In this document: piece by piece, positions 10,021 through 57,256 of the stretch | How the letters are laid out: each line of letters starts with the position of its first letter | Position numbering within the stretch: position 1 is the stretch's first letter | Source of the DNA: Elsinoe ampelina | Taxonomy: Eukaryota | Direction: 5' to 3' | Assembly (NCBI GenBank): GCA_010093995.1 | Contig: ML992510.1 | Span: forward strand, 1,027,132 to 1,091,131 | Length of the DNA stretch: 64,000 bases | Program-made: the position numbers and the translations under genes | Notes under the pieces: generated by a model | The model's database searches: none | What the model saw: the letters and a program-made list of their open reading frames with translations, nothing else | Told to the model about the DNA's origin: nothing

Positions 10021-10052
10021 CATAAGTAGTATAAACTATATATTTTAAAAAT

Positions 10053-11433
10053 CTATCTACTATAACTCTCTAACTTTACGCTTAAGGTACTAACTACCTA
10101 GTCTTACTTAGTACTACTCTACTTAGTAGCGTAGAGAGTATTCTTATATATATCTTAGTAGGTAGCAACAATAGAGTTCTCTACTCTAGACCTTAGCTAT
10201 AGGTTAGCCTTATAAGCTACTAGATCCTCTATAGTCTTATTACTAAAGTTAAGCATCTTATAGGTACTAATAGTAAAGGCGTAAAGATTATCTATAGAGA
10301 GAATAGTAACGAGGAAGTGCCTAACGGCGTAGCGGTAGTTAGCTATAGCCTAATAAGCGTTACTACCTTTAGAGAGCTTAAGAGACTTAGCTAGTAGGTC
10401 GACGTAATACTAATAAGCCTTATTACTACTAAAGGACGTAAGGGAGTAAGTCTCGAGAGTAAAGTAGTTAACTACAGAACTAGCGCGAGAGCTAACTAAA
10501 TTACTAGCGGAAGCTTTATAGGCTTAGGTACTCGTAGGCAAATTACGCCTAATAGTGCTACTAGGAGATATAAAGCTCTTGTTATTACTATTAGCGTCGG
10601 CGTCGGCTATATTAGTATTATAGTTTAAGTAAGAAGAGTAGTAGATAGAGGTAGCTAGCGTAGTAGCCTAGGTGCCCTTACTAGAGAATATAGTAGGTTT
10701 CTTAGCTAGAGTAGCGAGTTTCTTAGCCTTAGGCTTCTTAGAAGTAGTAGGCTTAATAAGCTTCTTAGGCTCTAGAGACTTAGTAGCCTCCTTAGCCTTA
10801 TACTTCTTTCTATAGATGTCTATATAGAAGAGAGTTAGAGCTACTAGAAAGTCCTTACTAAAGTAGTACTATAGGCAAGTTAGTAGTAAAGAATACTCTC
10901 GATAAGGTCGACATCTATAGCGTAGAGAATAGTAGTAATATTCTTAATAGTAAGGTATAAGCTATGTATTTTAGTAACCTTAGCGCGCTCTATATTCTCT
11001 CTCTAGAGAGAGGTAATATTAGTACTAGTATAAGTGTTCTATATACCCTTAGTCTACTTATATTCCTTAATAAGGTTTATAGCCTTAATATACTTATTAG
11101 TATAGTAGTTATACTTCTCGATAGATATAAGGTTAGTAGAGTTCTAGGAGACGTAGTTATAGTACTAGATAGCGCTATAGGCGTTATTAACGTAGTCTAG
11201 TAGAATAGCATTATCGATGTTATAGTAAGCAACCTTCGCATACTTATAGTAAGTATAAGTCTTAGTAACCCCTAGGTTATAGTTATAGAAGGTATCTAGC
11301 GAATGTTAGTAGCGCCTCTAGAGAACTACTAGTAGAGTACTAAAGACTTACTAATTATATCCCCGACGTAGTTACTATAGTAGTAGTAAGGAGTAATACG
11401 TAGTAGTAGTGCCTAAGAAGCTCTAGAAGCTAT
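10053..11433 (-). pseudogene. Antisense spliced accessory gene of E, ~425 codons: Zn2Cys6-like N-terminus and Lys/Ala/Pro-rich segment
   Basis: Intron 11296-11351 has GTAAGT..CTAAC..TAG. Probable intron 10869-10918 has a RIP-altered donor. TAY codons sit at Cx2C-x11-C-x9-Cx2C-x6-C spacing across the first splice. Confidence 0.7.
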
Positions 11434-11955
11434 AGTACTTACTAAGGTATTCGAGAAGCTATATATAGAAAGGACTAACGTATTAGAGTATAAGAGGTGC
11501 CTATATAGGCGTATTTTATTTACTATATAATATAACAAATATAGAAGGTAGATCTATATACGTCGCTATCTTCTAGGAGGTAGTAGTATCGTCTAAGAAT
11601 TAACGTTATAAAGTGTCGATATATAATACTTACTTAGGACCTCTAAGGGAGTTCCGCGTAGTAAACGAACTAATCCTATACGTTTACTAAAGCGCTTATT
11701 ATTTCTTAAAGCAATAAATACTTTAGCTTATAATATAAAAGAATAGCTATTAAAGGAGAGCTACGTTTGCCTTAATATATTAGTGTCGTTAGTAAATAAA
11801 GGTATAATAGATATAGAGAGTAAATAAAGAAGCTAAGTTCTTCTCCTATATAAGAAATACTAACTTACTCTTATAGAAGAGGCTAATAATAGTAATTAGA
11901 GGCCTACGAAGAATATAGTTTAATTAAGAGTAATTAAATATAAAGAAGAGATAAT

Positions 11956-12128
11956 TATAGAGGAGACTTAGTATATAGCTCCGGCTAAGTCTATTACGTA
12001 ATAAACTCTCTCTAGCTACCTTCTATATAGCCTCTAGCTACTACGAATAAAGGTAGCTATTAGTTTATCTATCTATCTAGCTTATAGATATTAGTAGTTC
12101 TATACGTTACTATATACCTACTCTTATA
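11956..12128 (+). repeat. 3' LTR of E
   Basis: Direct repeat of 4674-4846. Confidence 0.95.
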
Positions 12129-14329
12129 TTAGCTATAGTAGCTCCTACTTAATAATAACTAGTAAAAACTCTTCTTTATATATAACTTAGCTATATTTAT
12201 AATTAATAGTAGCCTTATTAGCCTTAAGCTAGCTAAGGCTAAGAATAATATTAAATTAGCTAATATCTATAATATAGAAGGTAGTAAGAGTATTTAGCTT
12301 ACTAGAAATAGTAGTAGTAAGAGAGACACTATAAGTAACTTATTCTATTAGAACACTATTATAAGCCTAAAGCTAAATAGAGCTAGCTAGTGCTACTAGG
12401 TAGCTAAAACTCTTTAGCTTATTAAGAATGTTATAGTTAACTATAGCGCCGATAAGCGCGCTAGTATTAATAAAAGCTTAGAGCGTAATAGTATAAAAGT
12501 AGTTATAGGGATTATAAATAGTAATAGGAGTTATAATAGCGGGGATATAGTAGCTAATAACGCTATTTAGTAACCGTATACCTCCGGATCTATCTCGAAT
12601 TACTCTTATTCTACTAGAGAATAGAACTTGTCCTCTAGCTACTTATTTCTCTAGCTAGATAGGTTAGTAGACTTATAATCTATTTTAGAATTAAACTAAG
12701 GCTAAACTAGATCTAGTTCGTAAGCTAAACTAGTATTAACTTAGTTACTTAATTTAGCTAAGTAATTCTAGAGCTATTATATCTCTTCTATAGTACTAAT
12801 ATATATAGAGTATATAGTAGCGTAAGTAGTCTTCTCTAAAGCGCTAGCTATATACTTAGTAGAGATATAGCTAGGCTTACTATATACGTAATAGGTAAGT
12901 ATTAGAGCTAGACGGAAAGGCTATAGAGCTCCTCTAGTAATAGAGCGAAAGATAGCTAGAGTAGTAGGTATAGAGATAGAATAAGGTATACAAATTAGTA
13001 CTATAGTAGTACGGCTTATAGCTAGGCTAGAGTATAAGGCCTAAGTACACTTAGTAATAAGGTTACTCTACTAGATATTATAGTTAGTAGCGTAGGTCTT
13101 TATAATAAAGATAGAGAGGTTATTAGTGTTAAAATTAATAAGGGTAGTACGTAGCTTACTAGATATCTTCTAGCGTAGCTAATAAAGCTATTTATCTTTA
13201 GCAATCTTAGTATAGAGAGTATACTTATTAAACTTACTAATAAAGGAGTTAAAAGAGATATTATACTAGAAGAGGCTAGCGAACTAAGCGCGCGTAGTAG
13301 CCTTATAGTTTAGATCCTCGAAGCGCTAGGCTAAAAGGCTAAGAGTAGCTTTAACATTAAGAGTGTTATTACTAGCAAAGTCTATAATAAGAGTATTATA
13401 AGAGCCTAGTGTTAGAGCGGCACTTAGTAGCGGCTAGTCCTACTTACGTAACGTACCTACTTATCTTATATAGCACTTATACCTTAGACTTAATAGTAAT
13501 TAGTTCTACTACTAATAGACTATTTAGTTAGATAAGCGTTCTCTATATTATAATATATATAGCTTTAATATAAGGCTTTAATAGTTCTAATTGCTCTACC
13601 TATAGTTATAATCTATTAGACTCTATAGACAACTAGAACTCTATTAGTAAGGCGCCTATACCTCGTATAAATAATGTTATAAAGATAAACTCTATTAAGT
13701 AGACTTCTCTAGAGAAAGAAGAAACTCTCGCGGAGTAGCTACTATACCTATGTACTAAGTATAAGTATTTAGAGCTAGAGCTTAAGGCTTAGAGCCTTAA
13801 GAAAGAAATTAAGTAAATATACTATATACGCGATATAGAATACTACTAAAGGGGCTTTAATTATAACTTATATACTTCTACTAAGCCTATAGTAAGTAAC
13901 GCTAGCACGTAGAGCGTATATAGTAGTAGTAGACTATTTATAAGACTATTCTCTAGACAACCTTAACTAAGAGAACCTTATCTCTATTAGAGTAAAACTC
14001 TAAAAGAGGTAAGATCTATAAGGACTAGTATAGTAAGTATACTATACTAGCTTACTCTAGAGATACTATTCTCTATAGAAGAATAAAACACTTCTTGCCT
14101 ATAGGACTAATAGAGTAGAGATTAGTCTTATAATAATTAAGAGTATACTAGTATAATACTTGTTCTACTTCTATATACTTATCTTTCTAGCTCTAATATT
14201 CTATCTTTGTTATAATTCTAATCTCTCTTATATTCTATTAAATAGAGCTATATAGACAAGATAGCACTCCGTGCTTAGCGCTAGCGAAATAACTAACTAC
14301 TACTAGAGTAGTACTAGTATAGATAACTC

Positions 14330-17300
14330 TCTAATAGCTTAGCTATTAGTAAGACATTTACTAAATTAGCTATAACTCTAGAGATAACCTCTATTAAAGA
14401 TTACTAGGCCGGAGAAGAGCTAGCGCTAAGACTATACTACGCTAATATAGCTCCTATAGAAAGTATAGCCGATATAGGAAATAATACTATATATAAAGCG
14501 CTCTTTGCTTATATTACTTAGCTTAAGAATATACTTAGTAGTCGCTCTCTAGTTATAGCGCCGGTGCTACGTAGTTGTTTTAATAATATATAACTTAATA
14601 ATATCTGCCTAATAAACCTATAAATCGTAAAAGAATATATACTAAGCTTATACTACCCCGAGGCCTTAGAGTTTACTATTATAGTAAGAGTTAAGGAATT
14701 TTTATATATATATAATAACATCTTTAAGATAGTACTAAATATTTACTTTAAAGAAGTTACTTAGTGCTATATAGCTATTAGCTACTTAAAAGGTTAGCTT
14801 AGCTATAATTAGGACTTATATACTAAAAGCGCTAGTATTATACCCTTATAAAGCCTAATATAGTTCTAGCTTTAGAACTAAGCCTAGAGTTCTAAAAACT
14901 ATAGTAATAGCTACGTAGTAAAGTTCTTTATATTATACTAGCGTAGAGAATAGTTAATTACTAATTTCTATATGTTCCTTAATAGTTATAAGTTTTATAT
15001 TAAGATAGCGCTACTCCTAGATAATACCTACTATATATAGCTTATTACCTATACTACGCCGGAGCTACGCTTAGAAGTACTCTATTAAGAGAACCTACTC
15101 TTAATTAAGGTAGAACTTCTAGTATATCTATTCTATTTAGAGTAGAACCTACTAGGCTACTTTAACTCTATATAGGGGTAGTATAAGTATAACGCTAGAG
15201 AGAAGACTAATACTTTTACTAAAAGGCCTTACTATAACGAAGACTATAAGGGCTAAAAGGACTAGTAGAGTAGCGCTAATACTACCCCTATAGCTCCCCG
15301 ACTTAGTACTACTTACTCTTATAACATCTATAAGAGCCTAGACTATTAGGCGCTAAACTATCCCTAGAAGAACTCTTTAAAATGGATAGTGTCCTTATAT
15401 TTACTAATCCTAAGTAGCTCTAGCGTAATATAGAATATATACTAAATTTGTACTAACGTTATAGTTAACCTACCTAAAGGCCCTATTAAAGGGGTAGCTC
15501 TAATAGATAGTAGCGCTAATAGTAACTTTATTAGCTAGTATTTTGCTATATACTATTATATCGCTATTAACCCCCTAGTAGTATATTAAGTATATAGCTT
15601 AGACAAATACAAATTAACTACCTATAGATATACTAAGTTAGCCTTTGCTATTAAGGATACCGAAGGAATAATATAGGCGTTATACTAGTAGTTTAAAAGC
15701 GTTAATATAACTAGTTATAATCTTATATTAGGCCTACTATAGCTATTATTCTATAACTCTAAGATTTAGTAAAGCGCTAGTGTATAGAGGTATTATACTA
15801 GCGCTATATAGGTGTTAATCCTAGATATACTCTTCTTCTTCTAGAAGCTAAATTAGTCTAATGCCTAGCTCTACCTAGTATATATATGCTAGGACGAACC
15901 TAGCGCCCTAACTCTACTATACTAGCTTAATAACTACGTAGATGTTTTTAATAAGAGTATAGTAATAGCGCTACTAGGTAATAATTTTACTTACTCTATT
16001 AATATTAAAGAGAGAGAATAGCTACTCTAGAGACCTATCTACCCCCTTAGTAAGAAGAAGCTTTAGGTACTTCGAGAGTATATAGATAATAGCTTAGTAA
16101 TAAGTTAACTCTAGTATAGTACTAGCTCTATAGAGTCTTCTATTCTATTCGTTCCTAAGAAGAATAGTTTACTACGCCTATATATTAACTATTATAGGCT
16201 AAATAATGTTACTATTAAGAACTATTACCTCTTACCTCTAATTGCTAAGATACTTAATTATATCGAGGGTATATACTTATTTAGCAAGCTAGACCTTATA
16301 GATGTCTACTATAGAGTATATATCTAGCGTAGTAATAAATAGAAGATAGTATTCTACTATTACTATAGCTACTTTAAATATACTATTATACCTTTTAGCC
16401 TTACTAATGCCCTAGCTATATTCTAGACTTATATATATTAGTACTTAAGTAGCTTAGTAGACTACTACTATATTATATATCTAGATAATATTCTAATCTA
16501 CGCTAGCGACAAGGAAGAGTATTACTAGGCTATTAGAAGTATACTAGACTACCTATATAAGAATAGCCTCTATATAAAACTAAAGAAGTATATCTTTAAG
16601 GTAATATAGGTAGTATTTCTAAGCTACGTTGTTAGTAGTAATAGTATTATAATAGAGTAGCCTTAGGTATAAGCCGTTACTAACTAGCCTATCTTTACTA
16701 GCCTTAAGGAGTTATAAACCTTTCTTAAATTTACTAATTTCTACTATTAATTTATTAAGAGCTTCTTCTATATAGCGCTACTACTAACTATACTTATACG
16801 AGAGTTAGTCTAAGAGAAGTAAGTAGGTCTATTTCTATAGAGTAATAATATAGTATAGGCCTTTAATAGGCTTAAAGCTACCTTTACGTAAGCGTCTATA
16901 CTATACTACTTTTTATTAGGTAAGCCTCTCTAGCTTAAGACTAACACTTTAGATTTTATACTCTCTAGAGTAATCTTCTAGTAAAACGAAAGTAATACTT
17001 CTATACGATACTAGTACTCTATAGCGTTCTAGTTCTAGAAGCTATAAGGTATAGAACTAAACTATACTACCTACGATAAAGAGCTTCTTACTATTATAGA
17101 AGTAGTATAGTACTAGCGCTAGTAATTACTTAGCGCTACTACTCTAATTAAAGTTCTCTTTAACTATAATAACCTTAGGTATTTTCTAACTACTAAGAAG
17201 CTTTTATAGTACTAGGCCTACTACGCCGAGGTACTAGCGTAGTTTAATATTGTTATTTAGTACTATAGTAGAAAGACTAACCTAGCTAATAGCCTATTAT

Positions 17301-19390
17301 ATAGACCTAACTACTATAAGTATAAAGAAGGTATATAGAAAGAGCGCTATATATTAGTCTCTCTCTTAGAGTAAGTATTATAAATACGAAGTAAAGGAGT
17401 TATACCTATATCTATTATAGATAAGAAACCTAAGGCTAGTAGGGCCTAGAAAGACAGTAATAAAGCTAGTATAGCTTATATACCTTAAACTACTCCCTAA
17501 TATAATACGCTTATATAATTCTAGCATACCTTTAGAATAGCGCCTATAAGTCTACCTATTACCTTAGGAGCGCTATAGCTATACTAAGAAGAGTTAGAGC
17601 CTCTAGAGTAAGAAGAGTAGTATCTAGAGAGTACTTATATAAACCTTTCTCTAAGCCTAACTAGTAATATTAAATTAGAACAATATATACCTACTCTAGT
17701 ATCCTAGGACATGCCGCTACTCGCCTAGGAAATAATAGAGAGCTAAGGGTATAAAGATAATATAACGCCTATATAACTCTAGGATACCTTTAGTAGAAAG
17801 CTCGCTATAATTTTAAACTAGAGTTAGTAAATTACGCACCTCTATACTATATAAGTACTAGTAGATAAAACTATATATACTTCTTCTACTCCTATATTAC
17901 TCTAGGACCTTATCTACGTAGTATAGTAAAGAGATACCTTTACTTATAGTAAGAAATAGAAACTTCTAAAAGAGAGAACCTTAACTAGTAATAGTACTAC
18001 CTCTAAGTAGAGCCTATCTAGTAATAGCTTACTCCGGAACGGAGATAGAGTATATATCCTAGAAGAAACTACCTTAAGAGTAGAGCTTATATAGTATAAT
18101 TATAATAATCCCTTAGAGAGTTACTTTAGCTATATAAAGACCTACCTTAATATAAGAAGGAAGTACTAGTAGCTAGGTATATCTATCGCTATAAAAGCGT
18201 ATATTAAGCGCTATAATAGCTACTAAAGGCATAAAGTAACGTAGTATAAGCCTTATAGCCTCCTATAACTCTTACTAATTCTACCTATACTCGAGGCCTT
18301 ATAATACTAGTTACTTAATTTTATTACTAGCTTACCCTCGGTAGAGCTCTAGCCTAGTATTATTATAGATACAATTATTATATATATCTATCGCTTGTCT
18401 AAGTTTAGTATCTATATACTGATATTAACTAAGCTTAACGCTAGGGACTTTACTAATCTATTTAAAACAGATATTATAACGTTGTTTAGAATACTAAAGA
18501 TACTAGTCTTAGATAGAGAGTCTATCTTTATAAGCAAATTCTAGAGTGCGCTATACTAGCGCTAGAAGGCGTAATATAAGCTTAGTACTAGTTTCTACCT
18601 ATAGATAGATAGCTAAACTAAAAGGCAAAACTAGATACTAGAGTAGTACCTCCGCTACTTTATTAACTATTACTAGATAGACTAGCTATACTAGGTTAAG
18701 TAGGCGTAATTCGTATATAATAACATATATTAAGTATTACTATATACTATACTAGTATAGTTCTTATTTATGTAGGAGATATATCTACTTAATAATATTA
18801 AAGTACTAGCGCTACCTAGCTACGTACTAGCGTATAACTTGTTAGTTAATAACTAAGTATAATTTATTACTAAAACGTATATAGAGCTTGCCTAACACCT
18901 ATATAAAGTATAGAAAGACTAGGCGCTAGCCTATAATAGAGATTAATAAGTAAAAGTCTTCTATAATAGCGATAAGGTTATACTTAGTACTAAGAACCTT
19001 TATAGCGCTAGACCTAGCTATAAGCTATTAGCTAAGTATATTAGCCTATTTATAATTATATAACGAATTAGTATATAGGTATATAAGCTATACTTACTAG
19101 ATAAAATAAAGATAATCTATAACATCTTTAACATTACGCTACTAGAGCTATATAGGCGTAGTAAGAGCATATACCTACTACCCCTAGAGGTAGAAGGGTA
19201 GGAAGAATATATTATTAAACATATCCTTAGTAAGAGCTATACTAGCACTCTAAAGGCGCTATACTACCTAGTAAAGTAGTAGAGTTACTCTATAGAAGAA
19301 AGTATATAGAAGCTAGTAAAAAACCTTATAAACGCTAAGGAATTACTATATAAATACAAGGTAGCTTAGTATAAGTATAGCGCTAGCTAA
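14330..19390 (+). pseudogene. gag-pol of A (zinc knuckle ~15320-15365, protease ~15500, RT, RNase H, integrase, chromodomain ~19200-19370)
   Basis: ALIDSSA protease-like motif, ILFVPKKN near 16140, YLD(N)ILIY at 16478. Many RIP stops. Boundaries approximate. Confidence 0.9.
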
Positions 19391-19582
19391 ACACTCTAGA
19401 CATACTTAGGATTAATAAGTTAAAGGTACAAATTTTAAAGTAAAGAGTACTTAGGCGTAGTACTAGGTTAGCTTAGAGTATTATTAGCTTACGTAAGGAG
19501 AACACTAGCGTAGTAAAAACTATAGAATTATACTAAAGTAAAGAGAGTATAGTATAGGTATAGTACTCTAGCTCTCTCTACT

Positions 19583-20453
19583 TTAACTATCTATGTTATC
19601 TACCTTAGTCTTATTCTTATTATTCTCCTTAATACTATTAATACGCCTAGTTAGTGCCCTTATAGCGTTATTAATTACCTACGTAGTAGTAGCTTACTTA
19701 TTCTTAGTAACTACCTATAAGAAAGTTAGTATAGCTTAAGCATTATAGAGGCGTACTTTTAGACTTATATAATTAGCTAAAGCCTTAAGTATAAAGCTAG
19801 TGTTACTAATTATACCTAGGTATAGCGCCTTTACTAGCTACTTAGTATTAACTTTAGAGGCGAAGAGTGTAGTAATAGTACTATTATAGCGTAAAGAAGT
19901 TATACTATTACTATTACTCTTATTAACTACCTTACTCTTGCTCTTAGTATTAGACTTACTCTATATATACTTAGCGCTAGCCTTCTTATATATATAGTTA
20001 GTATAGGCGGTAATCTAGCACTTTAGGAGAATAATATTCTTCTTAGAAGTAGTAGCGTTATTATAGAGTAGTATATACGTAGTAAAGTATTTATCCTAGA
20101 GCTTCTTAGTAGTAACTTAATCTTTAGAGTTAAGCTTAGTAGGCTACTAAGATTAGTATAAAGTAGATATAGTATAGGTATAAAGTATATCTAGTAGTAG
20201 TGTTTATTACTATAACTATAACAATTATAGTAGGTAGCCTTAGCCTTAGTAATCTAGTAGAGAGGATTCTTAATAGGGAGTATACTATCTTCGAGCTAGA
20301 GGTGCTTATTAATAGTAATAGCGTAGCGTAAGTATAGTATAGAGTACTAGTCCTAGTTAGTAAAATTACTCTTATAAGATCTATAAAAGGTTAGTACTAG
20401 CATAGTATAAGTACTATATATAATACTTACTCCTTAGAGACTTTAGAGGCTAT
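19583..20453 (-). pseudogene. Antisense spliced accessory gene of A, ~240 codons, Zn2Cys6-like
   Basis: Intron 20381-20430 has GTAAGT..CTAAC..TAG. Introns ~20144-20190 and 19715-19768 have RIP-altered donors. TAY codons at Cx2C-x21-C-x9-Cx2C-x6-C spacing (20197-20334). Confidence 0.65.
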
Positions 20454-21314
20454 AGTTATTAAAGTACGTAAGTATATAGGAGATAAGCTAGTATAGAGCT
20501 AGAATAATAAAGGAAAAAAAAAATTACTACGGAGGTACTATACTAGGTTAGTAAATAAATAACTAAATAGATAAGCTCGATAGCTAGATCTATAGTAGCG
20601 TAGGCTTAGTATATATACTAAGTCTCCTCTACTAGCCCTTAGACTAGTAAGACCTAGTCTATACTATATAGCACCTAAAATAGGTTACTAGTATAGTGTT
20701 AGACCTATATAAGTATAGAGCTAGTATTAAGTAGAATACTTACGCGAAGGAAGTATTATAAAGGAGAAAAGAAGAAGAGAAGAAGAAGAGAAAGATATAT
20801 ATCTAGCTCCGAGCTAAGACTAATCTAGAGAATAGTAGGTAGTAGTATATAATAATAAGTAGATTCTTATATATAAAAATAATAACGTAAGAGCGCTATA
20901 TTCTATATATAAAGAATTATACTATTATTACTATATCTAATATACGAAGAATAGTATAGGCTACTATAGGTACGCTATATATATAAAAAGTATACTATAC
21001 CTAAGAGGCGCTAGTAAGACACTCTTTCTTAGTTTTCTTCTATACTAGGTTTTCTAGGTTTTATTAAGGCTTATAAGTATAAGAGTATACCTCTTAAAGG
21101 GGAAGAATAATTATAAGAACTAGTATAGTAAGTATACTATACTAGCTTACTCTAGAGATACTATTCTCCGTAGAAGAATAAAACACTTCTTACCTATAGG
21201 ACTAATAGAGTAGAGATTAGTCTTATAATAATTAAGGGTATACTAGTATAACACCTATTCTACTTCTATATACTTGTCTTTCTAGCTCTAATATTCTACC
21301 TTTATTATAAGATT

Positions 21315-25780: not shown

Positions 25781-25829
25781 TAGATTATAGAGTATATAAG
25801 TAGATAGATTATATAAATATATAAATAGG

Positions 25830-32960: not shown

Positions 32961-32999
32961 ATTATAAAGTATATAAGTAGATAAATTATATAAATATAT

Positions 33000-43000: not shown

Positions 43001-43859
43001 TAAGGCTATAGTAGTTAACGTAGAGATAGAGTCCTCTACCTAGCTTACGAATAAAGAGAATAGGTAAGGAATAGCTAGTAGAACTCGGTGTAATAAAGCC
43101 TTTATTAAGATATTCTTAGATAAATTGTTCTACTATATTAAGTTTTTCTAGTAATAGACAGTATAAAGGCTCTATATATAGTAGCTTAGTACTATCTTTA
43201 AGTATAATATAGTTGTTAAAATTTAGCCGATACTAAGGAAGTATATTAGATTATTCTTTAGAGAAGATATTAGTAAACTTCTATAGCTCCTTTAGGAGAA
43301 CTACTATAGGATCTAGTTCTAGCTTAGAGACTATCTAGTAGTAGTCTTCGATATTCTTTACTAAGATTATAAATACCTTATTCTTTTAGTATTTAGCTAC
43401 TAATATAAAGGTAGCTATACTAATAAAGGTAATAGTTAGCTCTTCTTATTTAGCATTACTTACGTAGGTAAGTAAGTAGAAGAACTTATACATTAACTAA
43501 GTACTATAGGAGATTAGCTTAAACTCTCTCTAATTTAGCTTAAAGTTTAACCTAAGAGCTAGTAGCTAATATAGTCTAGTTCGTCCTAACTTAGTAGCTA
43601 AGCTAGAACTTAGTTTATAAGTTAGACTAGAACTAAACTAATTCTAAACTAAAAGAGTAGCTTTGCTAAGCTAGATTCCTAGATCTAAGCTAGGCTTAGA
43701 TCTAGATCCTAGTCTTTTAATTAGCTATAGTAGCTTCTACTTAATAATAACTAGTAAAAACTCTTCTTTATATATAACTTAGCTATACTTATAGTCGGTA
43801 GTAGCTCTATTAGCTTTAAGCTAGCTAAGGCTAAGAATAATGTTAAAATAGCTAATATC
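40090..43859 (-). pseudogene. pol of C2 (RT, RNase H, integrase, chromodomain)
   Basis: IYLD(N)ILIY near 42700-42730 on the minus strand, ILFIRK-type motif near 43050, chromodomain ~40130-40290. Confidence 0.9.
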
Positions 43860-44062
43860 TATTAAGAATATAGCTCTCTCTAGATAATTAAGCTATAAAG
43901 TTATATAACCTTAAGTTATGTAATGCTAAGGCCTAGGGATTTATAGCTGTTCTTTCTTCTAGTAGATAGACTTCTTTTAATTAATTAACTCGTCTATTAC
44001 CTAACTAGTGTACGATTAGTTCTATATAATATTCTATCCCTAAACATGCCTTCTACTTAACA

Positions 44063-44074
44063 GGTTATAAGCCC
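44063..44074 (+). promoter_or_regulatory. Primer-binding site of Copia-D (GGTTATAAGCCC, probably RIP-mutated GGTTATGAGCCC; half-tRNAiMet type)
   Basis: Lies directly after the LTR-terminal CA. Same motif in G at 55952-55963. Resembles the copia/Ty5-type PBS. Confidence 0.75.
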
Positions 44075-45989: not shown

Positions 45990-48900
45990 GTAAGCTAGGA
46001 AAGCTTACTATTAACGACATATCTACTACTAGTTTAACCTCGGGTAAATATAGAAGGTCTTTTAGTATAGAAGGACGGAGTAGGCCTAAGTTAGAGGTAG
46101 AACTCTTCTACGGGGACCGCGCCTACTTAAGGCGCTTTCTTGTTTAACTTAAAGCCTTCTTTGCTCTAGAGAGAGATAAGTATAGTAACGACGTAGTAAA
46201 GGTCCTCTATACCGGGATATACCTTAAGGGCGCTACCTTTAGGTAGTTTAAGCCTTATATAAGTAGCTACCTAGATAGATAACTAGGCCTAGATATAAAG
46301 GCTATCTTTAAGAGCTTTAGTATCTTCTAGGCAAAGATTAAGTAAGTCTTTAACGTATCTAACGAGAAACACGTCGCTATAATAAAGATCTAACAATTAT
46401 AACAATATAGGTCTATAGCCTAGTACTATTCCTAGTTCTAACAACTTATAATATACCTAGACTAGGACAATAGTGCTAAACACTTAGTATTCTATTAAGG
46501 ACTAAGCGACTCGGTTAAAGACTAAATAATACCTAAGCTGCCCGATAGCCTTTAGGAACTAGTAGATACTATAATTGCTATTAATAATAGACTTTATAAA
46601 CGACATATAGAACGTTATAGAGGATATAAGGTAAATACTAGATATATACGTTCCTCTCGAAACTATAGAGACTCTATAGAACTTAATACTATATATAAAG
46701 GCTACCCCTTATAGGTATAAGGCTATAGTTATAGAGGAAAGTTCCTTAGTAGAAAAGAGAGAGAGAAGTATAAATAAGATAATCTATATTTTAAGTGTAA
46801 AAGACCTAAGCATCGGGCTAGAGACTACCGATAAGAGGCGCTAGCTAATAGATTATATATAATAGTTGCCGGGCTAGTAGAAAAAAAGGCTAATACTACT
46901 ATAGAAGACCTAACGACCTTTAGCGTAGATAAGGAAATATAGAAGAGATCTACGACGACTTAAGAGGTAATAGAATTCTCTCCGGATGTTATACTTAATA
47001 TCTCTATAACTAATAGCGAATAACAAAGCTAAAACATAACGCTATTATAGATAGTATATTATAATAACTCTTATTATATTTACTTATTAGACAAGTAAGA
47101 ATCTAGTTAGTTCCTATATAAGCTATCTAAGCGTAGGTAACTAATAAAATAGCTAGACTAGGGGCTTAACCTAGAAAGGCTCTCTATAATTAGTAGTAAC
47201 ATTAACTAACCTTAGAAGGTAGTTAGCGACAATTACTAATATACGATTATTAAGATAAAGTATTAGGACGTAAGTGCTACGCGATAATATAGTAGCCTTA
47301 CCTTTAGCTCTTATAGTAAACTATAAGGAAAGGCATATTATATGTTACTCTAGAAATATATAAATCTAAATTATAAATAGTACTATACTATCTACTTATA
47401 CGATATGCTTAGAGAAGACGCTATTAGTCTTAAATATACTATAGACTTCTCGGTAATCGAGATAGATAGTACTATTCCCTATAGCTAAGTAAAAGAATAT
47501 ACTTAGTATAGCTTTACTAACTATAACTATACTAGGGGTAGTAGCGATAAAGAGAAATATAACAAAGAATATACTAAATAACTACGATGTAATAATATAG
47601 ATAAGAACTTATTTAACAATAATAATAACAATATACTACTATCGGGTAAACAACTTAAAGTATACCTTATAGAGATATAGAGAAATTATATAATAATATA
47701 TACCTACTACTAGAATAGAACGCAATAAGACAAATCTATATAACTTATTTTTGTCTTTAATACTAATACCTAGCTATACCTAGAAGAAATAGTTATACCT
47801 ATACGAGTATATAACACTACTTAGTACAACTAGTAGAGAATTATTAAACTTTATAGTTACTAAGGGACTTAGGCGCTAGAAGTTTACTTTACTATATTAA
47901 ATAGCAACAAAACACAACTTACCTAATAGATATAGTACTAATAGTAGATACGTATAGAAAGGAATTAGCTACTTATCTAAGGAGCTATAATAACAAAAAA
48001 CTAGCTAGTTATTGCCTAATAAGGTAAGACAATAACACTAGCTAAAGCCTTAATATAATAAAGATCTATATATTAAACTACTTTATACTAGAAGTTAAAA
48101 TATAAGAAAGTAAAGTAAGAGCAATAATAGATTTAGGAGCTAACTATAGCTACGTCTCTATAACAGTTACTAATTAGCTTAAACCTTATTAATACTAGAA
48201 GGAGTTACCTTATCTACTTACTATAGTAGATAGAACCCCTATAGAGAAGAACGGGAAAGTTACTTAGGAACTACGAAACGTTATAATCTAAATCGAAACA
48301 TACACGGAAAAACAATTAATTAATATAGTTAATATATAGTATAATATAGTACTTAGTATAGACTAGCTTTAATAACATAATCTAGACGTAGACTAGATTA
48401 AAAGAACACTCGAATTCCCTAAGTGTAATTATAGAATATAGAGAGTATAATTAGCTCTGTAGATACTAACTATAAGGATAGTATAGATATAACTAATAGT
48501 TAGAGCTATTACTAGTATAAGCGATTAAGTACTTCTACTAGAATATAAAGACTTTAAGGACTTATTTAAAGAAAGAGAAGGTATTATAGCCTTACTCTAA
48601 TATAAACTATAGAATTACGAAATACCTTTTAAAGAAGATAAATCCCTAATACACTATTAAGGTCTTATACTACTATCGAAACAAGAGAAGAATATTCTTA
48701 AGAACTACATCGATAAGTACTTACTTAAAGGATTTATATAACTATTAAAATTACCTATTACGTACGAAGTACTTTTTATACTAAAAAAGAATAGAACGTT
48801 ATAAATATACATTAATTACTAGAAACTTAATACACTTACTAGGAAGAATTACTATCCCCTACTAAGGATTAATAAACTTTAAGACTAACTACTTAGAGCT

Positions 48901-50840
48901 AAATAGTTTACTATAATTAATATTAGAGATGCCTATTATTAAGTATAAATAAAAGAGAGTAAGGAGTAGAAGATAGCTTTTAGAACGTAATAGAGTCTAT
49001 ATAAGTACCTCGTTATACTCTTTAGGTTAACTAACGCTCCTATAACCTTCTAAGAGTTAATTAATAACACTCTATAAGAATACCTTAACAATTTTATCTT
49101 AGCATATTTAGATAATATTATTATCTTCTTAAAGATGTATAATAAACACATAGGACATATTTATAAAGTACTATAGAAACTAAAAGAAAAAGATCTACTA
49201 GTAAAACTCTCTAAGTGTAAGTTCTATAAATATAAGATACAATTTCTAGACTATGTTATATCTACTAATAGTATTAGACCTAATCCGAAGAAGATTAAGT
49301 TAGTAAATAACTAGCCGGAACCTAGGACAGTTAAGAAGGTTTAAGCGCTACTAGAGTTCTTTAACTACTACTATAAGTTTATTAAAGAATTCTCTAAGGT
49401 AGCTATACTAATATCTAACCTTACGAAAAAGAAAACTAGCTTTATCTTCGACAAGAGATATAAGTAGGCCTTTAAGGAGCTAAAGCTTAGGCTTATAATA
49501 GTACCTATCCTAGCACTCTTCGACCTAGACTAATAAGCACTACTAGAAATAGATACTTTAGACTTTATAATAGAAGCGTATCTAGCATAGAAGAGCGTAG
49601 AAGAATAACGCTACCTAATTGTATACTACTTATAAAAAATAACCGGACCTAAACTTAACTACGATATATACGATAAGGAATTACTTATAATTATAAAAGT
49701 GTTCTACGAATAGAGAGTATACCTAGAAGAGATAACCTTACCTATATAAGTCTACACTAACTATAAGAACCTTCTATATTAAATAATAACTAAGGTTCTT
49801 AATAGATAATAGGTTTAATAGTTAGAAACACTTATAAGCTATAACTTCTAGATCTACTATGTTAAGGGATTAGAGAATAGTAGAGTAGACGCTCTTAGCT
49901 ACTAGCTAGATTACTTAAAAAATATAATAACAATAGAGGCCTCTATACTAAAGTAGTAGGATAACGCTCTAGTCTATAAGTACCTAAAGGTAGAGTAGTT
50001 ATATAGCCTTACCTAGGAGCTTACGTAAGAACGAAAGAAAGAAGTTATTTAAATATACTATAATAACCTAATAGCGGGACATAGTAGGATTAATAAGACT
50101 ATTAAACTTATTATATAAAACTACATCTAGAAAGGACTTTAAAACAATATTAAGACATATATCGCTACCTACGATATATGCTATAAGTCTAAGCACTCTT
50201 AACATAGACTATATAGCCTACTATAACTCTTACTACTACTAGATAAACTATAGCAATTAGTTACGATAGACTTTATAGGACCTCTACTACTATTAGAAGA
50301 ACCTCTTATAGGTATAAAGTATAATAGTATTCTAGTCCTAGTAGATAGGTTTACGAAGTATTACTACTTTGTCCTATATAAGACAATAGTAACTACCGAG
50401 GATATAGCCTTTATCTTTCTCTAAATAATTGTTTTATAATACGGAGTACTATAAGACCTAATAACCGATAGAGATAAGCTATTTACGTTATAATTCTAGT
50501 AATTATTTATAGATCTACTAGGAGTTAAATATAAACTATTAACCTTCTTTTACCTATAAATAAACAGATAAACTAAATAGGCAAATTAAGTACTAGAGTA
50601 GTACCTATAATACTACCTAAACTATAAGTAAGACTTATAGGTAACGCTATTACTACTTATAGAGCTCGCTATTAACAATAGAAAGTTAGCAAATAGAATT
50701 TTACTATTCTATATAAACTATAAGATATACCCGGATCTATACTACGACATACTTAGAATTAAGCTAGTATCTAAGGATACTAATATACTAGTAGCTAACA
50801 TTAAGAAACTATATAACTAGCTATACTATAATATAGTATT
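45990..50840 (+). pseudogene. gag-pol of F, 5' part (zinc knuckle ~46785-46830, protease ~48125, RT, RNase H, integrase)
   Basis: CFKC..GH.A.DC-like knuckle, AIID(L/S)GAN protease motif, YLD(N)IIIF at 49105. Continues at 56172-56700 with the chromodomain. Confidence 0.9.
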
Positions 50841-53800
50841 TATTAAGCGGAAGGCACGTTTAGGGGTAGAGTATTATATAGAACTAATCCGCACACTAGT
50901 TAGGTAATAGACGAGTTAATTAATTAAGAAGTCTATCTACCGAAAGAAAGAATAGCTATAAATCCCTAGGACTTAGCATTACATAACCTATAGTTATATA
51001 ACCTTCGGGCCTTAGTCTAATTATCTAGAGAGAGCTATATTCTTAACACTTCTACTTAGCTCCTATAGATAAGCTATTAGGTTAATAATAAGCTAAGTTA
51101 CTTTATAAACCTCGTAAAGTTCTAACCTTATAATAGCTTAGTTAACCTATTAGCTACTATGTCTACTGTCCTTATAAACTTAACCTATATCCTCTAGTCC
51201 CTCTATAGCCTCCTAACGTAGTAGTAAGCAACATTAATGTGTTTTGCCCTTTTATAAGTATATAGCTCCTTTATAAGTAAAAGAGCTACCTAGTTATTAC
51301 TATTAATCTTAGTAGTAAAGGGTAATCTTATTATTGCTTTCTAAGACTCCTTTATAGTTAGCTTCTAAGGTAATTAACTAACTATCTTATAACAGCCTAT
51401 GTCTCTTAGTAACTAAGATAGGAACTATAATCTCTTTATATAAGAGTATATTACTATATATTTAGCCTCTATAGTAGAGGTTAAAATAGACTTCTACTTC
51501 TTACTTATCTAGCTAATAGAACTACCTATAAGCATAAAGACGTATCTAAGAATAGAGACTCTATCTGTCTTGTCTAAGGCATAGTCTAAATCAGAATATC
51601 CCTTAAGAGTCTTATTACTATTCCTCCTAAATACTATACTAAGATCTTTAGTTAATCTAATATATCTTAATATCTTCTTTATCTTAATAGTATAGCTATC
51701 TATTAGATCTGCTATGAACTAACTAAGCCTTCCTAAGGCAAAGGCAGTATCTAGTCTTATTAGGGTACTAAGGTACATCTAGCTTCTAATAGTATATAAG
51801 TACTTAGTTCTGCTAAACCTTATATCTTTAGTCTAAGCTCTCTAAGGGAGCTTATTGTCTATTAGCTACTTTATTAGAGTAACCTTGTTAGAGGTTATAT
51901 TAAGCCTCTATAGCACATTATCTATATAGTAGGTCTAGTTAAGCCTTAAGGTTCCTTATTATCTATCCCTTATAACCTTAACTCTAAGAACTTTACTAAC
52001 CTTACTAAGATTCTTAATCTTAAAGATTCTACTAAGCTCTTGCTTAAACTACTAGATGTTCTCTTTACTTTGTGCTATAAATAGTATGTTATTAATATAA
52101 ACTAAAAGAATAATCTTCTTGTTATAGTATATAAGAAGATAGAGGTCTACTTTGCTCTAAGTAAAGCCTAGCTTTAAAAGCTTAGAGATGTAGTGCTAAT
52201 TCTAATCTCTAGTAGCTTACTTAAGTCTATATAAGCTCCTAAGAATACGAAAGGTAATGCTAGGTTAGACCTTAAGTCTAGGTAGTAGCCTTATATAAAT
52301 TACTTCTCTAAGGAATAATTCTATAAAGGCATTATTAATATCTACCTAATAACATTTAAGGTTAAGTATATATATAATAGCAAAGAACAGTCTTAGTGTA
52401 TCTACTCTAACTGTTAGTATAAATATGTCTTTATAGTTAATGCTATACTTCTATAAGAAGCCTCTAGTAACAAGTCTAGCCTTAAACTTCTTAATAGAGC
52501 TATCTATGTTATACTTAACGTTAAAGACCTACTTAGATGTTACTAAGTTTAATCCTTTTAGAGAAATAACCTCTTCCTATATGTTATTTAATTCTAAAGT
52601 ATTAAGCTCTATATTAATTGCTTTCTGCTACTTACTTCCCTAAACTAGATTAGTAATAGCCTTATAGTAGTCTCTTAGAATTAGGACATATTACTTAATA
52701 GAGGCTGTTATAGTAATCTTATTAACCTTATCTTACTAATTAATACACTTAGTAATAAATGCTCTATAATACTTTACCTTAGGCTCTTTATTATTAGATT
52801 CTTTATCTCTTAATCTCTTAAGTGATTAACCTACATAATTAGGTAATATAGATTAAACTATTAGCTCTTCTCTATATTAGAATTCTATAAGGTTAATAGG
52901 GTTAACCCTTAGAATCTCGATATATAAGAAGCTTCTCTCTATAGGCGCTTCTTACTAAATAGGCTAGTCTAATTAGTCCACCTTAGGATTAAGCTAGGCT
53001 CGGATCTAGGTTAGTCTACTAATTAGTCTCCTAACTAGTGCTTAATTGCTTGTAGTGCTAATCTTAATACTAAGATTAATATTCCTACCTTTCTTAAATT
53101 TAGAGAACTTAACATTTAGTAATACAATTACTGCCTTCCTATTAGGTACCTATATCTTATACATCCTATTAGTTCTATCTATATAGCTAAGGAATACTCC
53201 TACTCTTCCTCTGTCTATAAGCTTATCTTTTCTTCTATATATAGGAAAGGACTTTAGGTTTATATAGGTATATACCTTATAGCTCTAGACTCTAATGTAA
53301 TTAACTAATAGCTTAATGCCTATATAGGCCTTAATTAGTGTAACTTGCTTATTATTAATTATAGGTCTAGTTACTATTCTGTTTCTTAGATATATATCTA
53401 CCTAAACTGCTTTAGGCTAGAACTTATTTAGTATCTTTAAGTCCTTAAGCATTGCTCTTATGCTATTCTCTAAGGTTTAGATGCCTTTCTCTACTAGTCT
53501 ATTCTAGATTAAATTATATAGCTTAGTAGTTATATAATAGATGTCTTCTTAGCGCTCTTACTACTTTAGAATCTTATTAAGCTTACTAGCATTATCTAAT
53601 CTAGTAACTTTAACTTTAGTATTACTTTTCTTTTTAACCCTTAGCTTCTATTTAATAAGCCTTTATAGAGCTTTATCTCTTATCTTAAGTAGTATAATCT
53701 ATGTTATTCTTAAATAGCTATCTATAAGCTTAAGGAAGTATCTAAACCCTTTCTTACTTACTTTAATTAGGCTATAGATATTAGCATAGATAAGCTAAAG

Positions 53801-56171
53801 AACCTCTAGTCTTCTCTATGAGGTTTTGCCTCTTCTATTTCTTATTTTAGTAAGGGAATAGACCTTATATAGGATCGACAGATTATAGTTTAAGTTAATA
53901 AGCTTCTTAAGGGTTATAACCTTATAAAGATCCCTTAGCTTCTTAATTCTAAGGTAAGCAAATCTCCTATGCTAGAGTTAGTACTCTATCTTAGAGTTAT
54001 TAGATCTTAAATTAATAAGATCCTTATGTTACTTATCCTAGGTTAGATATACATACTTAGTATATAATATAATTACTAGCTAAGTAGTAAGGAATGCTAT
54101 GTCCTAATTAGCTAGATCTAGAATTAAGCCGGGCTTAGATCTAGAATACAGCTTTTAATTAGCTTACTACTTAAAGAGGGATTAGATAATATATACCCCC
54201 CCTCGAATCCTAGCTTTAAGTAGTAGCTACTTTTATAAATTAAGAATAAGAAAAGAATTTAAATTAAGAACTCTAGAAACTCCTAAATCTATATATAGCT
54301 TATAATAGAAGACTAAATTAATACTAAGATTAGGTATATAAAGAGCTTATATCTTTATCTTATCTCCCTTCTTAGTCCTAATAACTATAGTTCCTATTAA
54401 CTATAACTAAAGGTAACCCCCCCTAACCTAGATCTATCAAGTATATATCTTACTTAATAGGCCTCTAAAGAGAGTTAGCTTATCTATTATATAGTTAGAT
54501 ACTCTAGAGTTAAGTATCTACTAATAATATAGAAGCTTACCTTATACCTCTAATGTAGAGCCTATAGTCTTAAGTTCCTCTTTACCTAATAGAACTTTAG
54601 GTAGTAGAGTTAAGATTAGAGAGGAAGGTTTAGACCGGCCTTTAGTAGTAGTAAAGGCTTTACCTTTCTTTAACTTAGATACTGCTTCTAGTCTATTAAC
54701 CTTCTTAGTAAGATGCCTAACAAGGGTAATTAGATTATTAGAAGCTAATAGAGATCTTCTTCTCCTTAGTAGGCTCTTAGTAATCCTATAGGAAGGCTAA
54801 ATATGCCTCTATACTCTTTAAAGTTAAGGGCATCTAGTTATAGTATAACTAGCCTATAAGCAGAGGATATATATATAGCTTATACTTCTACTAAGTCCTT
54901 AATTTAGTCTCCCCCTAGCAAATATAGTAATCTTATACTTACTAAGGCGTCTCTCTTTCTCCTTAAGAATAAGAAGGACCTTATCTATGTTAGTTAATCC
55001 CCTTACTTTAATTACTTACCTTGTAAACCTATAGTCGTTAGGAAGAGAAGAGAGAAGCTACTATAATCTCTCTACTACTCTCTAATAACCCTTATCTAGG
55101 TAGATAATAGTAATCTATCTTCCTAGGCTAGTAAGGTAGGACTAAGCTTTATTAATAGTGTCTTGCTTATCTATCTTATAGTTTATAAATTAGATAACTA
55201 GCTCTCTTACACTTGCTTTAAGGTTTGTTTTATACTTAGACTTAAGTAATCTCTAATACTCTAATGTAAGCTCTTCCTTATATAGTAACTCTTTGTTATT
55301 TTATAAGATACACTAGACAACCTAGTACTTAGTAGTTATATTAGCCTTTTGCTAGTCCTTTAACTTAATAGGTAGGACTAAAAAGGAGCTAGAGGTATTA
55401 TCAGATAATAGTATTACTAAAGGGGTAGTCTAACTACGAATAGTCTAGAAGGCATTCTTACTTATAAGGTACATTTCTATCTAGTAGAACTATTCCCTCT
55501 AGTTAAGTCTATTAAGCTTAATAACTAGTCTTCTTAAAGATAAGGACTAATCTTCTATAGTTAGGAATTAAGTTCTCTAAGGAGAAGAGAATCAAATAAA
55601 TAGATAAAGGTTAAGTTTAGTTAATAACCTCTAGTTAATAGTTGTCTATAAGGCTAGCTAGGCCTTAGAGGAAGTTAGTAAATTAAATATGTTTAGTTAA
55701 TCTAGCTAATAAACAGCAGCTATAGTAGAACAATTATAGGAGTTAAACCTATGCTAAATAGAAGTACTATTCCTACTTATTGTCCTAAGTAGTACAATCT
55801 TTTACGACTTATAGTATAGTCTACTAGGCTTACTAAAGGTATCTAGATAGTTAACTATAAGGCGGTAGAGATATTATAATTCCGCTTCTATTTTATTTAA
55901 GTAGTAGGCTAACTACTATATATATAATTCTATACTTATACTATAAGCTCTAGGCTTATAACCTATTAAGCAAAAGGCACGTTTAGGGGTAAAGTATTAT
56001 ATAGAACTAATCCGTACACTAGTTAGGTAATAGACGAGTTAATTAATTAAGGAGTCTATCTACCGAAAGAAAGAATAGCTATAAATCCCTAGGACTTAGC
56101 ATTATATAACCTATAGTTATATAACCTTCGGGCCTTAGTCTAATTATCTAGAGAGAGCTATATTCTTAATA
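50841..56171 (-). mobile_element. Full-length Ty1/Copia element G, 5331 bp, same lineage as D
   Basis: 208-bp LTRs at 50841-51048 and 55964-56171. Perfect TSD GTATT. GYSD.DYA RNase H motif near 51580-51603. Reverse-complement similarity to D. Confidence 0.95.
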
Positions 56172-56700
56172 GTATTTATATTATAAAGAATAGTAGAGTT
56201 TACTAACTAGAAGAGAATTACAAGACTAATTCTATAGGAGAGAGAGAAAGTTTATCTCCTTAGTAAAAACATTAAAACGAAACAACCGAGTAAGAAACTT
56301 AATTATACTAAACTAGAACTCTTTAAGATCCTAGAAAAGAAAAACAAGAACGTATATAAACTAGAACTACTAAGACATATAAGGATTTATCTAGTCTTTT
56401 ATATATTACTACTAGAGAAAGCACTATAGAATACTATACCTAGACCTATCGAACTAGAGGAAGAAACATAGGAGCTATAGTATAAGATAGAAAGAGTTTT
56501 ACATTATAAACTTATAAAAGAAAAACGCTACTATCTTATTTACTAGAAGAGACATTAGTATAGTAAAGTAATATAGGAACTAGAGGAGCACCTTACCTCG
56601 TAAGCAATTCTAGATTACTAGATTAAGAACCTATCCTAAGTAAACCGACTAGACGGACCTAGTACTCGAAATACTAAATAAAAATAAGAACGCCTAAGGA
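56172..56700 (+). pseudogene. End of F pol (integrase C-terminus and chromodomain)
   Basis: IYLVFYILLLEK (RIP-mutated IHPVFHVSLLE) and YYLIY*K..*EL.EHL motifs. Confidence 0.85.
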
Positions 56701-56707
56701 AGATTAC

Positions 56708-57256
56708 TTAACTAATAGAAGTACCTTAATCGTTGCTAAGTAAGGAACTCTAATTAGAGTCGGGCATAAATAACTACTAGTCCTATAGTAGGACAGGATC
56801 TACTAATAATAGTATTTCCTTCTACTCTAAGACTTAAATACAAGTCTCTTCTAGAGAGATTACTTTCTCTACCTTATCCTCTAACTTTTATATCTCTTTA
56901 TATAGGCAAAGCTTATTACCTATAGCTCTTTAATAAGCCTCTTTTGCCTTTTTATAAGCTTCTTTAGCTTCTCTTCTAGTAGCCTTAGCTATAACTAATT
57001 CCTTTTATAAACGAATATACTTAGACTAAAGACGCTACTATTTCGATTTTGTTACCTAAATATTATAACCTAAGTAGTTACTTACGATATACTAGCTATA
57101 GATACTTAACTAAATATAGACCTTATAGTCTAGCCCCTTCGATTTGCAACAAGAATAAGCCTATAGTATATTAGTTCTAAATAGTTTAATAAACTCCGAG
57201 AGATTCTTTCGTATAGATATACTAGATTCGCTATACCTTTAATAACTAGGAGATAT
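56708..57256 (-). pseudogene. Antisense accessory gene of F, ~180 codons: canonical Zn2Cys6 spacing followed by a coiled coil
   Basis: Cx2C-x6-C-x8-Cx2C-x7-C at 57065-57157 (second Cys still TGC, the others TAT), followed by an E/K/A/R-rich helical stretch. No intron is needed. Confidence 0.75.

Follow-up and report, generated by a model that had tools for sequence, protein, structure and literature searches.

A 64,000-nucleotide stretch of the Elsinoe ampelina genome (contig ML992510.1, positions 1,027,132–1,091,131, hereafter the window) holds four different Ty3/Gypsy chromoviruses, which we call E, A, B (in two copies, B1 and B2), and F. Together with intact relatives found on metagenome contigs, they point to an ascomycete chromovirus lineage with a third gene, which lies between pol and the 3′ long terminal repeat (LTR), on the opposite strand to pol and convergent with it, and that gene would encode a zinc-cluster-like protein. 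In this reading, to which we give a probability of about three in four as a whole, F contains a dead copy of the gene, and E, A, and B contain degraded minus-strand coding sequence for a product that we leave unnamed. The position, strand, conservation, and cysteine pattern of the gene and the selection acting on it are established in the intact relatives, as is the homology of the F sequence to their protein family. A first-pass annotation of the window had proposed that all four families encode a zinc-cluster protein on the antisense strand. Its observation is partly confirmed and its interpretation partly supported: the proposal is right for F, E stands in between with half of a cysteine motif, and for A and B no homologue was found.

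The evidence for F is the most direct. When its minus frame after pol was translated unaltered, with stops as X, it was matched by 72 of 120 proteins of the family described below, the best match reaching 29.8 bits over positions 56816–57214; the best unrelated match of these proteins elsewhere in the window scored 5.5 bits. A subfamily hidden Markov model (HMM) gave 8.2 bits on the raw frame and 21.2 bits when Tyr was read as Cys in all frames alike, with no score above 1.6 elsewhere. The six cluster codons of F (table 1) align with the six invariant cysteines of the family, and the five that now read TAT presumably encoded cysteine, from which repeat-induced point mutation (RIP) would have derived them. 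The premise of the first-pass annotation that RIP turns Cys codons into Tyr holds in this DNA, as the zinc-finger Cys and His residues of the integrase read Tyr in the window copies when their translation is compared with the Pfam Integrase_H2C2 match. RIP would also have added the 19 stops found in the 197 codons of the F frame: all are TAG or TAA, which RIP of CAG, CAA, or TGG would yield. The gene is located between the end of pol, at about 56650, and the 3′ LTR starting at 57323, on the strand opposite to pol, and the first-pass coordinates for it (56708–57256) fit well. By its pol, F is closest to loci that carry the intact gene (L018, L035, L024, L013, L051, L021, and L041). As its frame matches the family and its pol groups nearest to the carriers, we conclude from homology that F holds a degraded member of a conserved antisense protein family.

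These carriers were recognized among 79 loci from metagenome contigs with a GC content of 40–60%, gathered via pol alignment. The 3′ end of pol is retained in 60 of them, 48 extend 600 nt or more past it, and the distance from pol to the 3′ LTR ranges from 36 bases to about 1.6 kb. All six frames of the 79 loci were scanned for a stop-free Cx2Cx6Cx5-12Cx2Cx6-8C motif made of true cysteines. Twelve such motifs were found, in 11 loci, and all are antisense to pol, either just past its end or overlapping it; the scan revealed none on the sense strand. The full motif is present in ten of the 48 that extend this far past pol (600 nt or more). The gene often overlaps the last codons of pol. The possibility that open reading frames (ORFs) abutting the pol end are mirror artefacts was ruled out by the presence of the six-cysteine motif. 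In L033, L058, L061, and L065, two half motifs lie about 110 nt apart, and in L033 a 55-nt intron (GTGAGT...CTAAC...TAG) joins the halves at a spacing of x11. In the ORF frame, dN/dS is 0.04–0.06 for L013/L024/L029 and 0.30–0.33 for L042/L077/L047; in the other five frames it is at least 0.10, mostly above 1, and each value exceeds that of the ORF frame. These ratios indicate that the F-type antisense gene family is under purifying selection. The three features that the first-pass annotation had expected of intact homologues, a position 3′ of pol, an antisense orientation, and a dN/dS below 1, are all found for the F-type family (11 loci; 0.04–0.33).

The antisense ORFs of the intact relatives encode proteins of about 170–220 amino acids with six cysteines, followed by a long helix and an acidic tail. 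The six cysteines are invariant in an alignment of nine proteins that are only 22–30% identical to the first. A profile search retrieved at least 345 homologues at E ≤ 0.001 among 8000 scored proteins. The 120 family proteins listed are 155–280 amino acids long and many are encoded on contigs of 1–7 kb; several copies are present in Bipolaris maydis C5, and others in Pyrenophora teres, Exserohilum turcicum, and Stemphylium lycopersici. Some are labelled "Zn(2)-C6 fungal-type domain-containing protein" in UniRef, and in the protein Atlas members fall in Ascomycota clusters without a Pfam family; members stand in databases as hypothetical proteins or as host Zn(2)-C6 proteins.

Sequence and fold comparisons, though weak, relate these proteins to Zn2Cys6 DNA-binding domains. 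Their cysteines have the spacing Cx2Cx6Cx5-12Cx2Cx6-8C of that domain, and Pfam Zn_clus is among the weak matches of five of the 12 intact ORFs, at 11–17 bits. Against sequences of the Protein Data Bank (PDB), the family profile ranked Pho7 (E 0.17), a Schizosaccharomyces pombe relative (0.24), Leu3 (0.56), LAC9 (1.1), and Gal4 (2), with coiled-coil proteins alongside. An AlphaFold2 (AF2) model with a mean confidence (pLDDT) of 77.3 has helices at residues 32–36, 51–56, and 66–150 and a disordered tail, with a short helix after each Cx2C. Most of the rows listed by Foldseek for this model are Zn2Cys6 DNA-binding domains, Pho7 being the top one (E 0.4) and LAC9 aligning with a TM score of 0.65 over 32 columns. 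Modelled as a homodimer, the protein scored 0.44, and its best control 0.00, the runs agreeing in at least 76% of contacts with a partner pLDDT of at least 74. Among proteins of solved structure, 21 of the 30 that form pairs of one chain reach this mark, and none of the 23 single-chain ones does. From these sequence and model comparisons, we describe the family product as Zn2Cys6-like and not as a proven member of the Zn2Cys6 family.

Ascomycetes have very many host Zn2Cys6 genes, and the F match might therefore come from a captured or nested fragment of one of them and not from a gene of the element. We regard this as very improbable: the same ORF occurs at the same place and on the same strand in 11 intact relatives and follows the pol phylogeny, members are found on element-sized contigs of 1–7 kb with several copies per named genome, and, at 155–280 amino acids, they are without the long regulatory domain that host factors possess.

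In E, A, and B, the minus frames after pol contain about 2–6 stops per 100 codons, versus about 11 window-wide and 20–25 in the neighbouring frames. The stop-poor minus frame reported by the first-pass annotation is therefore present in these three families and not in F. Three-base periodicity is stronger in these stretches than in pol. However, reading the same triplets on the plus strand gives a frame that is just as poor in stops in all three families and that, in E and B, shares the phase of pol; stop counts alone cannot choose the strand, and a separate strand test was needed. When trained on the degraded frames of pol, a codon-usage model gave +10.8 (SD 6.0) per 200 codons for the true sense, with 46 of 47 true-sense test windows positive and a minimum of −3.6. 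The regions after pol gave −16.6 in E, −8.0 in B2, −5.7 in B1, and −20.1 and −10.8 in A, where one further frame gave +1.6. A six-frame codon model, which picks the correct strand in 61 of 68 test windows, ranked the minus strand best in consecutive runs of 10 (E), 7 (A), 5 (B1), and 5 (B2) windows. Contig depth is similar over pol and the region after it in A and B, which indicates that this region belongs to the families and not to one copy. As part of the best explanation, E, A, and B would thus also carry degraded minus-strand coding sequence where F has its gene, with an unnamed product.

A different account of E, A, and B is that they have no antisense gene and that the signal stems from a sense ORF, either a third ORF or an extension of pol, or from base composition, the minus frame being its mirror. 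The equally open plus frame would fit it, as would its shared phase with pol (E and B) and the plus-strand ORFs that form small clusters after pol in some relatives (L039/L057/L078 and L057/L062). The minus frames also lack homologues: a protein search with the degraded E frame (10074–10973, minus) retrieved none, and a profile of B1 and B2 found no relative among 1.84 billion representatives. A sense-strand extension of pol was ruled out, since the intact Pol proteins, namely a Transposon Tf2-5 polyprotein-like protein of Elsinoe fawcettii (P0001) and five further ones, end about 20–40 residues past the chromodomain. Pfam detected nothing beyond SH3_Tf2-1 on the plus frames after pol. Codon usage favours the minus strand by −5.7 to −20 per 200 codons, below the lowest true-sense value, and the six-frame model does so in 27 windows of consecutive runs over the four regions. 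We therefore consider an origin of the signal in a sense ORF or in composition improbable, and retain degraded antisense coding sequence as the reading for E, A, and B.

Whether the product of this sequence is also a zinc-cluster protein, as the first-pass annotation proposed for all four families, is a separate question. Its argument was based on patterns of Cys or Tyr codons. Tyr accounts for 8.9–10.6% and Cys for 0.5–0.8% of codons in all six frames of the window. A Cys/Tyr pattern as loose as the one used there occurs 97 times over the six frames, and a Gal4-spaced one 21 times, on both strands and also inside pol and the LTRs; two of these 21 are in minus frames after pol, versus about 1.2 expected. 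As evidence for a zinc cluster, such patterns are no better than chance. The quoted spacings were found exactly in A (x21/x9/x6, 20197–20334) and F (x6/x8/x7, 57065–57157), and those of E and B could not be reproduced. The A pattern contains three stops. B2 fits another Gal4 spacing, x6/x11/x7 at 33685–33786, where all six positions are TAT; the third of these positions is CGT (Arg) in B1, so that a Cys ancestor there would require a change other than RIP.

E is different in that it has a Cx2Cx6C motif of true cysteines on the minus strand (table 1). This is the single occurrence in the window, and none of 200 first-order Markov simulations holds one: it is not a chance occurrence. It is surrounded by a locally stop-rich frame. 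The motif is possibly the first half of a zinc cluster, for the second half of which no convincing candidate was found in E.

That all four families encode a Zn2Cys6-type antisense protein can draw on the confirmed case of F and on the E motif, located at the right place and on the right strand. As clusters are split by introns in some relatives, a second half might have escaped notice. In A and B the coding signal is on the minus strand, with Tyr-dense N-terminal patches. In L009 and L005, which are among the loci nearest by pol to E, A, and B, the antisense ORFs are rich in Cys but spaced non-canonically. Conversely, these two ORFs have no Zn_clus match, E, A, and B have no homology to any intact antisense protein compared, one proposed Cys is Arg in B1, two of the quoted spacings fail to reproduce, and the Cys/Tyr patterns occur at chance frequency. 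An extension of the zinc cluster from F to all four families appears unlikely to us.

The explanation we prefer, a conserved zinc-cluster-like antisense gene that is dead in F and antisense coding sequence in E, A, and B, has to be weighed against several results. The F frame is not stop-poor, and the six-frame codon model is undecided there (margins 0.5–1.3); over 68 test windows, this model names the correct strand just 61 times. The antisense stretches of E, A, and B were matched neither by the intact antisense proteins, whether as family HMMs, 10 further ORFs, 120 database proteins, or relatives with simulated RIP, nor by one another in a composition-corrected six-frame comparison. Zn_clus (PF00172) remains below its 21-bit cut-off in all 12 intact ORFs, with a best score of 17.0 (L021) and no match in seven of them. 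The PDB sequence search gave no match with E below 0.07, and Foldseek none at E ≤ 0.001. The dimer contacts look antiparallel (i+j near 194), unlike those of Gal4-type coiled coils, which are parallel, and the dimer pass may stem from the model's memory of coiled coils.

Other searches bear on the same comparisons. Pfam gave no real match on any minus frame of the four regions after pol, with stops as X, a negative of little weight, since Pfam also missed rve and Chromo in the degraded pol. The composition-corrected comparison between families left one sense-strand match, between A and F, which is probably the 3′ end of pol; uncorrected scores were noise on both strands. A weak match of B1 (26836–26898, 3.1 bits) to intact antisense proteins was dropped, as it contains three stops.

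The regions after pol are diverse among the relatives. A second, two-exon subfamily of the antisense gene is represented on the minus strand in L042 (9140–10343), L077 (6732–8088), L047, L074, L076, and L033. The first exon specifies a start rich in serine and a long charged helix rich in Glu, Arg, and Lys (L042 and L077), and the second the cluster, a stretch with much Lys and Gly, a conserved "..MDRL.." region, and an acidic tail; L074 resembles a deletion variant without the cluster. When loci are ranked by pol, L001, L003, L005, L007, and L009 come nearest to E, A, and B. L001 and L003 have no evident antisense ORF. L009 (5905–7012) and L005 (7248–7778) have Cys-rich ORFs on the minus strand with other spacings, for example Cx2C-x14-C-x22-Cx2C-x5-C, without a Pfam family; that of L009 looks multi-exonic. 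Small clusters of plus-strand ORFs after pol are formed by L039 (3379–4044), L057 (6372–6950), and L078 (9277–9885), and by L057 (6191–6688) and L062 (5235–5702). In L064, the minus-strand ORF at 9515–10489 is a Copia reverse transcriptase (RT) nested after pol (RVT_2, E 1.5e-25); not all antisense ORFs located after pol therefore belong to the host element.

Pfam, pol searches, and comparison of the window with itself agree with the first-pass annotation that the families are distinct: E, A, B1/B2, and F represent four Ty3/Gypsy chromoviruses, each with a plus-strand pol. The stretches that it named lie, as it stated, between the end of the integrase SH3/chromodomain region and the 3′ LTR, pol ending at about 9990 in E, 19420 in A, 32985 in B2, and 56650 in F. 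The LTRs of E, of about 185 bases, are 92.6% identical, and its SH3_Tf2-1 domain was found by Pfam at 9579–9759. The 5′ part of A is cut by another repeat (14016–15777), and no LTR was found for A in the self-comparison of the window. B1 is 90% identical to 28485–34565 over 6082 columns. In B2, whose internal part covers 28492–34373, Pfam recognizes RVT_1, RT_RNaseH (RT_RNaseH_2), Integrase_H2C2, and SH3_Tf2-1. P0001 is 46% identical to the B pol over its full length: its residues 1–1176 of 1198 align to 29392–32919 of B2, and it ends 22 residues past the alignment. The protein cluster of P0001 carries PF00385 Chromo; Pfam Chromo and rve were undetected in the degraded pol copies of the window. 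The pol of F runs from 47551 to 50840 and picks up again at 56170, with SH3_Tf2-1 at 56244–56424, after a Ty1/Copia element whose RT region was matched by a Copia probe at 52264–51398. As judged from domain order, LTR pairs, and the full-length alignment to a Chromo-bearing relative, all four families are Ty3/Gypsy chromoviruses. A second, inverted copy of the Ty1/Copia element is located downstream at 58376–61420, and 206-base LTR-sized pieces are present at 43860–44060 and 61203–61403. The boundaries of the elements and of their antisense features are given in table 1.

Table 1. Chromoviruses of the window and features of the antisense strand after pol (positions in the window)
Feature	Position	Strand	Details
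Element E, Ty3/Gypsy chromovirus	4675–12140	+	LTRs 4675–4860 and 11956–12140; pol ~6255–9990
Element A, pol	15971–19420	+	pol matches; SH3_Tf2-1 at 18971–19154
Element B copy 1 (B1), internal part	21308–27146	+	pol 22215–25742, aligned to P0001
Element B copy 2 (B2)	27873–34562	+	5′ LTR 27873–28491; pol 29392–32985; truncated 3′ LTR 34374–34562
Element F	45430–57794	+	LTRs 45430–45903 and 57323–57794 (92.4% identical); pol matches
Ty1/Copia element nested in F integrase	50841–56169	−	206-base LTRs 50841–51046 and 55964–56169, 97% identical
F, putative RIP-inactivated antisense accessory gene (zinc-cluster + coiled-coil family)	56666–57256	−	family protein matches, HMM
F, six cluster positions, x2/x6/x8/x2/x7	57065–57157	−	codons TAT, TGC, TAT, TAT, TAT, TAT
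E, antisense coding-like stretch	9900–11700	−	2–5 stops/100 codons at 10075–10974; codon usage; 10 windows
E, true-Cys Cx2Cx6C	11208–11240	−	TGC GAA GGT TGC TTA CTA TAA CAT CGA TAA TGC
A, antisense coding-like stretch	19300–20650	−	4–6 stops/100 codons; 7 consecutive windows favour minus
B1, antisense coding-like stretch	26000–27050	−	stop density, codon usage, 5 consecutive windows
B2, antisense coding-like stretch	33200–34250	−	stop density, codon usage, 5 consecutive windows; Cys/Tyr pattern 33685–33786

According to the self-comparison and the pol searches, the window is a nest of LTR elements, mainly RIP-degraded Ty3/Gypsy chromoviruses. Its GC content is about 30% throughout, TpA/ApT is 2.04, and (CpA+TpG)/(ApC+GpT) is 0.13. 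By the thresholds in general use for these two indices, it has undergone heavy RIP. Differences between the window and further genomic copies are nearly all transitions: run X1 shows 617 A>G, 564 T>C, 366 G>A, and 316 C>T changes, and at most 13 in each transversion class. The copies in the window are dead relics of RIP.

Within this nest, E sits inside another Gypsy element, which has its RT on the minus strand and is split into 3744–4678 and 12117–12277. An uninterrupted copy of this site is present 39 kb away, at 42796–43873, which fixes the ends of E. A further repeat family, to which we assigned no type, is present at 1–3743 and inverted at 14016–15777, with about 91% identity; the latter copy truncates A, and a 200-base piece (21108–21310) is found at the 5′ edge of B1. 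Runs of N occupy 1242–1981 (740 bases), 25994–26003 (10), and 57914–58373 (460), the 10-base run being inside the B1 antisense stretch, where B2 has about 17 extra codons. Summed contig depth over 9900–27200 (runs X1 and X2) is about 1,500–2,400 in the region after pol of E and 12,000–25,000 in A and B; by this measure, which is not a copy number, the latter two would be high-copy families of this genome and E a lower-copy one.

The architecture of the intact relatives suggests how the gene might work. The product would consist of a short basic N-terminus, the six cysteines with two short helical turns, a long helix serving as the modelled homodimer interface, and an acidic disordered tail, and it is predicted to bind zinc and DNA as a dimer. 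The open frame of L077 extends into the 3′ LTR, and the gene of L042 starts about 150 bases from the LTR. As the gene starts adjoin or enter the 3′ LTR, the promoter should lie in the LTR and read inward, and transcription would proceed inward from the 3′ LTR side. A protein with this minimal Gal4-type build would likely bind repeated sites in the LTR of its own element and tune sense or antisense transcription; alternatively, it might act on the targets of the element. That the lineage encodes its own Gal4-type, dimeric, sequence-specific factor, which binds LTR or host sites and controls transcription, silencing, or integration, is a tentative proposal for which we would give somewhat less than even odds.

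If this is true, the elements bring their own regulator, which bears on how transposons are switched on, escape silencing, and choose targets in fungi. At least 345 members, several of them in plant-pathogenic Pleosporales, are either without a family name or included among host Zn(2)-C6 factors, and censuses of transcription factors are inflated accordingly. The family also offers a directly testable system, with a small protein, a candidate target in the LTR, and many natural variants.

In the usual view, gag and pol are the only genes of LTR retrotransposons. Zhao et al., in Virology in 2011 (417:248), reportedly described the gene brtn in Boty-like Gypsy elements of Botrytis cinerea and Sclerotinia. 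The excerpts available of two papers describe antisense genes between pol and the 3′ LTR in plant elements and in Boty of Botrytis (PMC7264820, PMC8365987), and those of three papers present brtn as such a gene of Boty-like Gypsy elements (PMC8365987, PMC7264820, PMC4227169). The first-pass statement that this module is not part of the standard gag-pol model was therefore too strong. By description, which is the level at which we compare them, brtn resembles the F-type gene in its fungal Ty3/Gypsy host, its position between pol and the 3′ LTR, and its opposite strand; no domain of brtn is mentioned in these excerpts. One Monilinia transcript is reported, in an excerpt of a further paper, to match both a truncated Pol and BRTN (PMC5987419); this would fit, by analogy, a gene overlap like that of the relatives described here. 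The plant aORF-3R of Grande1, RIRE2, Retand, and PvRetro13 is presented in the available excerpt as antisense, conserved within families, and without an assigned function (PMC7264820). Compared likewise by description, it shares with the F-type gene the position between pol and the 3′ LTR and the antisense orientation, and it differs in belonging to plants and partly to non-chromovirus lineages, and in that this excerpt describes no zinc cluster for it. Full-text searches, with subscription journals and Repbase outside their scope, returned no literature linking a zinc cluster to Gypsy elements or to an antisense ORF. The class of feature, an antisense gene after pol, is known; its identity as a zinc cluster was not found in print.

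Among characterized proteins, the Gal4-type factors (Gal4, Pho7, Leu3, Ppr1, Hap1, Put3, and LAC9) are the top-ranked, if weak, sequence and fold matches of the family, with which they share the x2/x6/x5-12/x2/x6-8 spacing and, as far as the family is modelled, the two short helical turns and the long helix. The family differs from them in being below threshold in Pfam, in its size of about 200 amino acids without the Fungal_trans middle homology region, in being encoded by retrotransposons, and in its antiparallel dimer model. A parallel in design is offered by HBZ of HTLV-1, an antisense-encoded bZIP protein transcribed from the 3′ LTR. HBZ is, like the family product as we picture it, a small dimerizing factor of DNA-binding type specified by a minus-strand gene of a retroelement near the 3′ LTR. 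It belongs to a human deltaretrovirus, it is a bZIP protein and not a zinc cluster, and there is no homology between the two. If the proposed function is true, the antisense gene would be a fungal retrotransposon counterpart, in design, of HTLV-1 HBZ.

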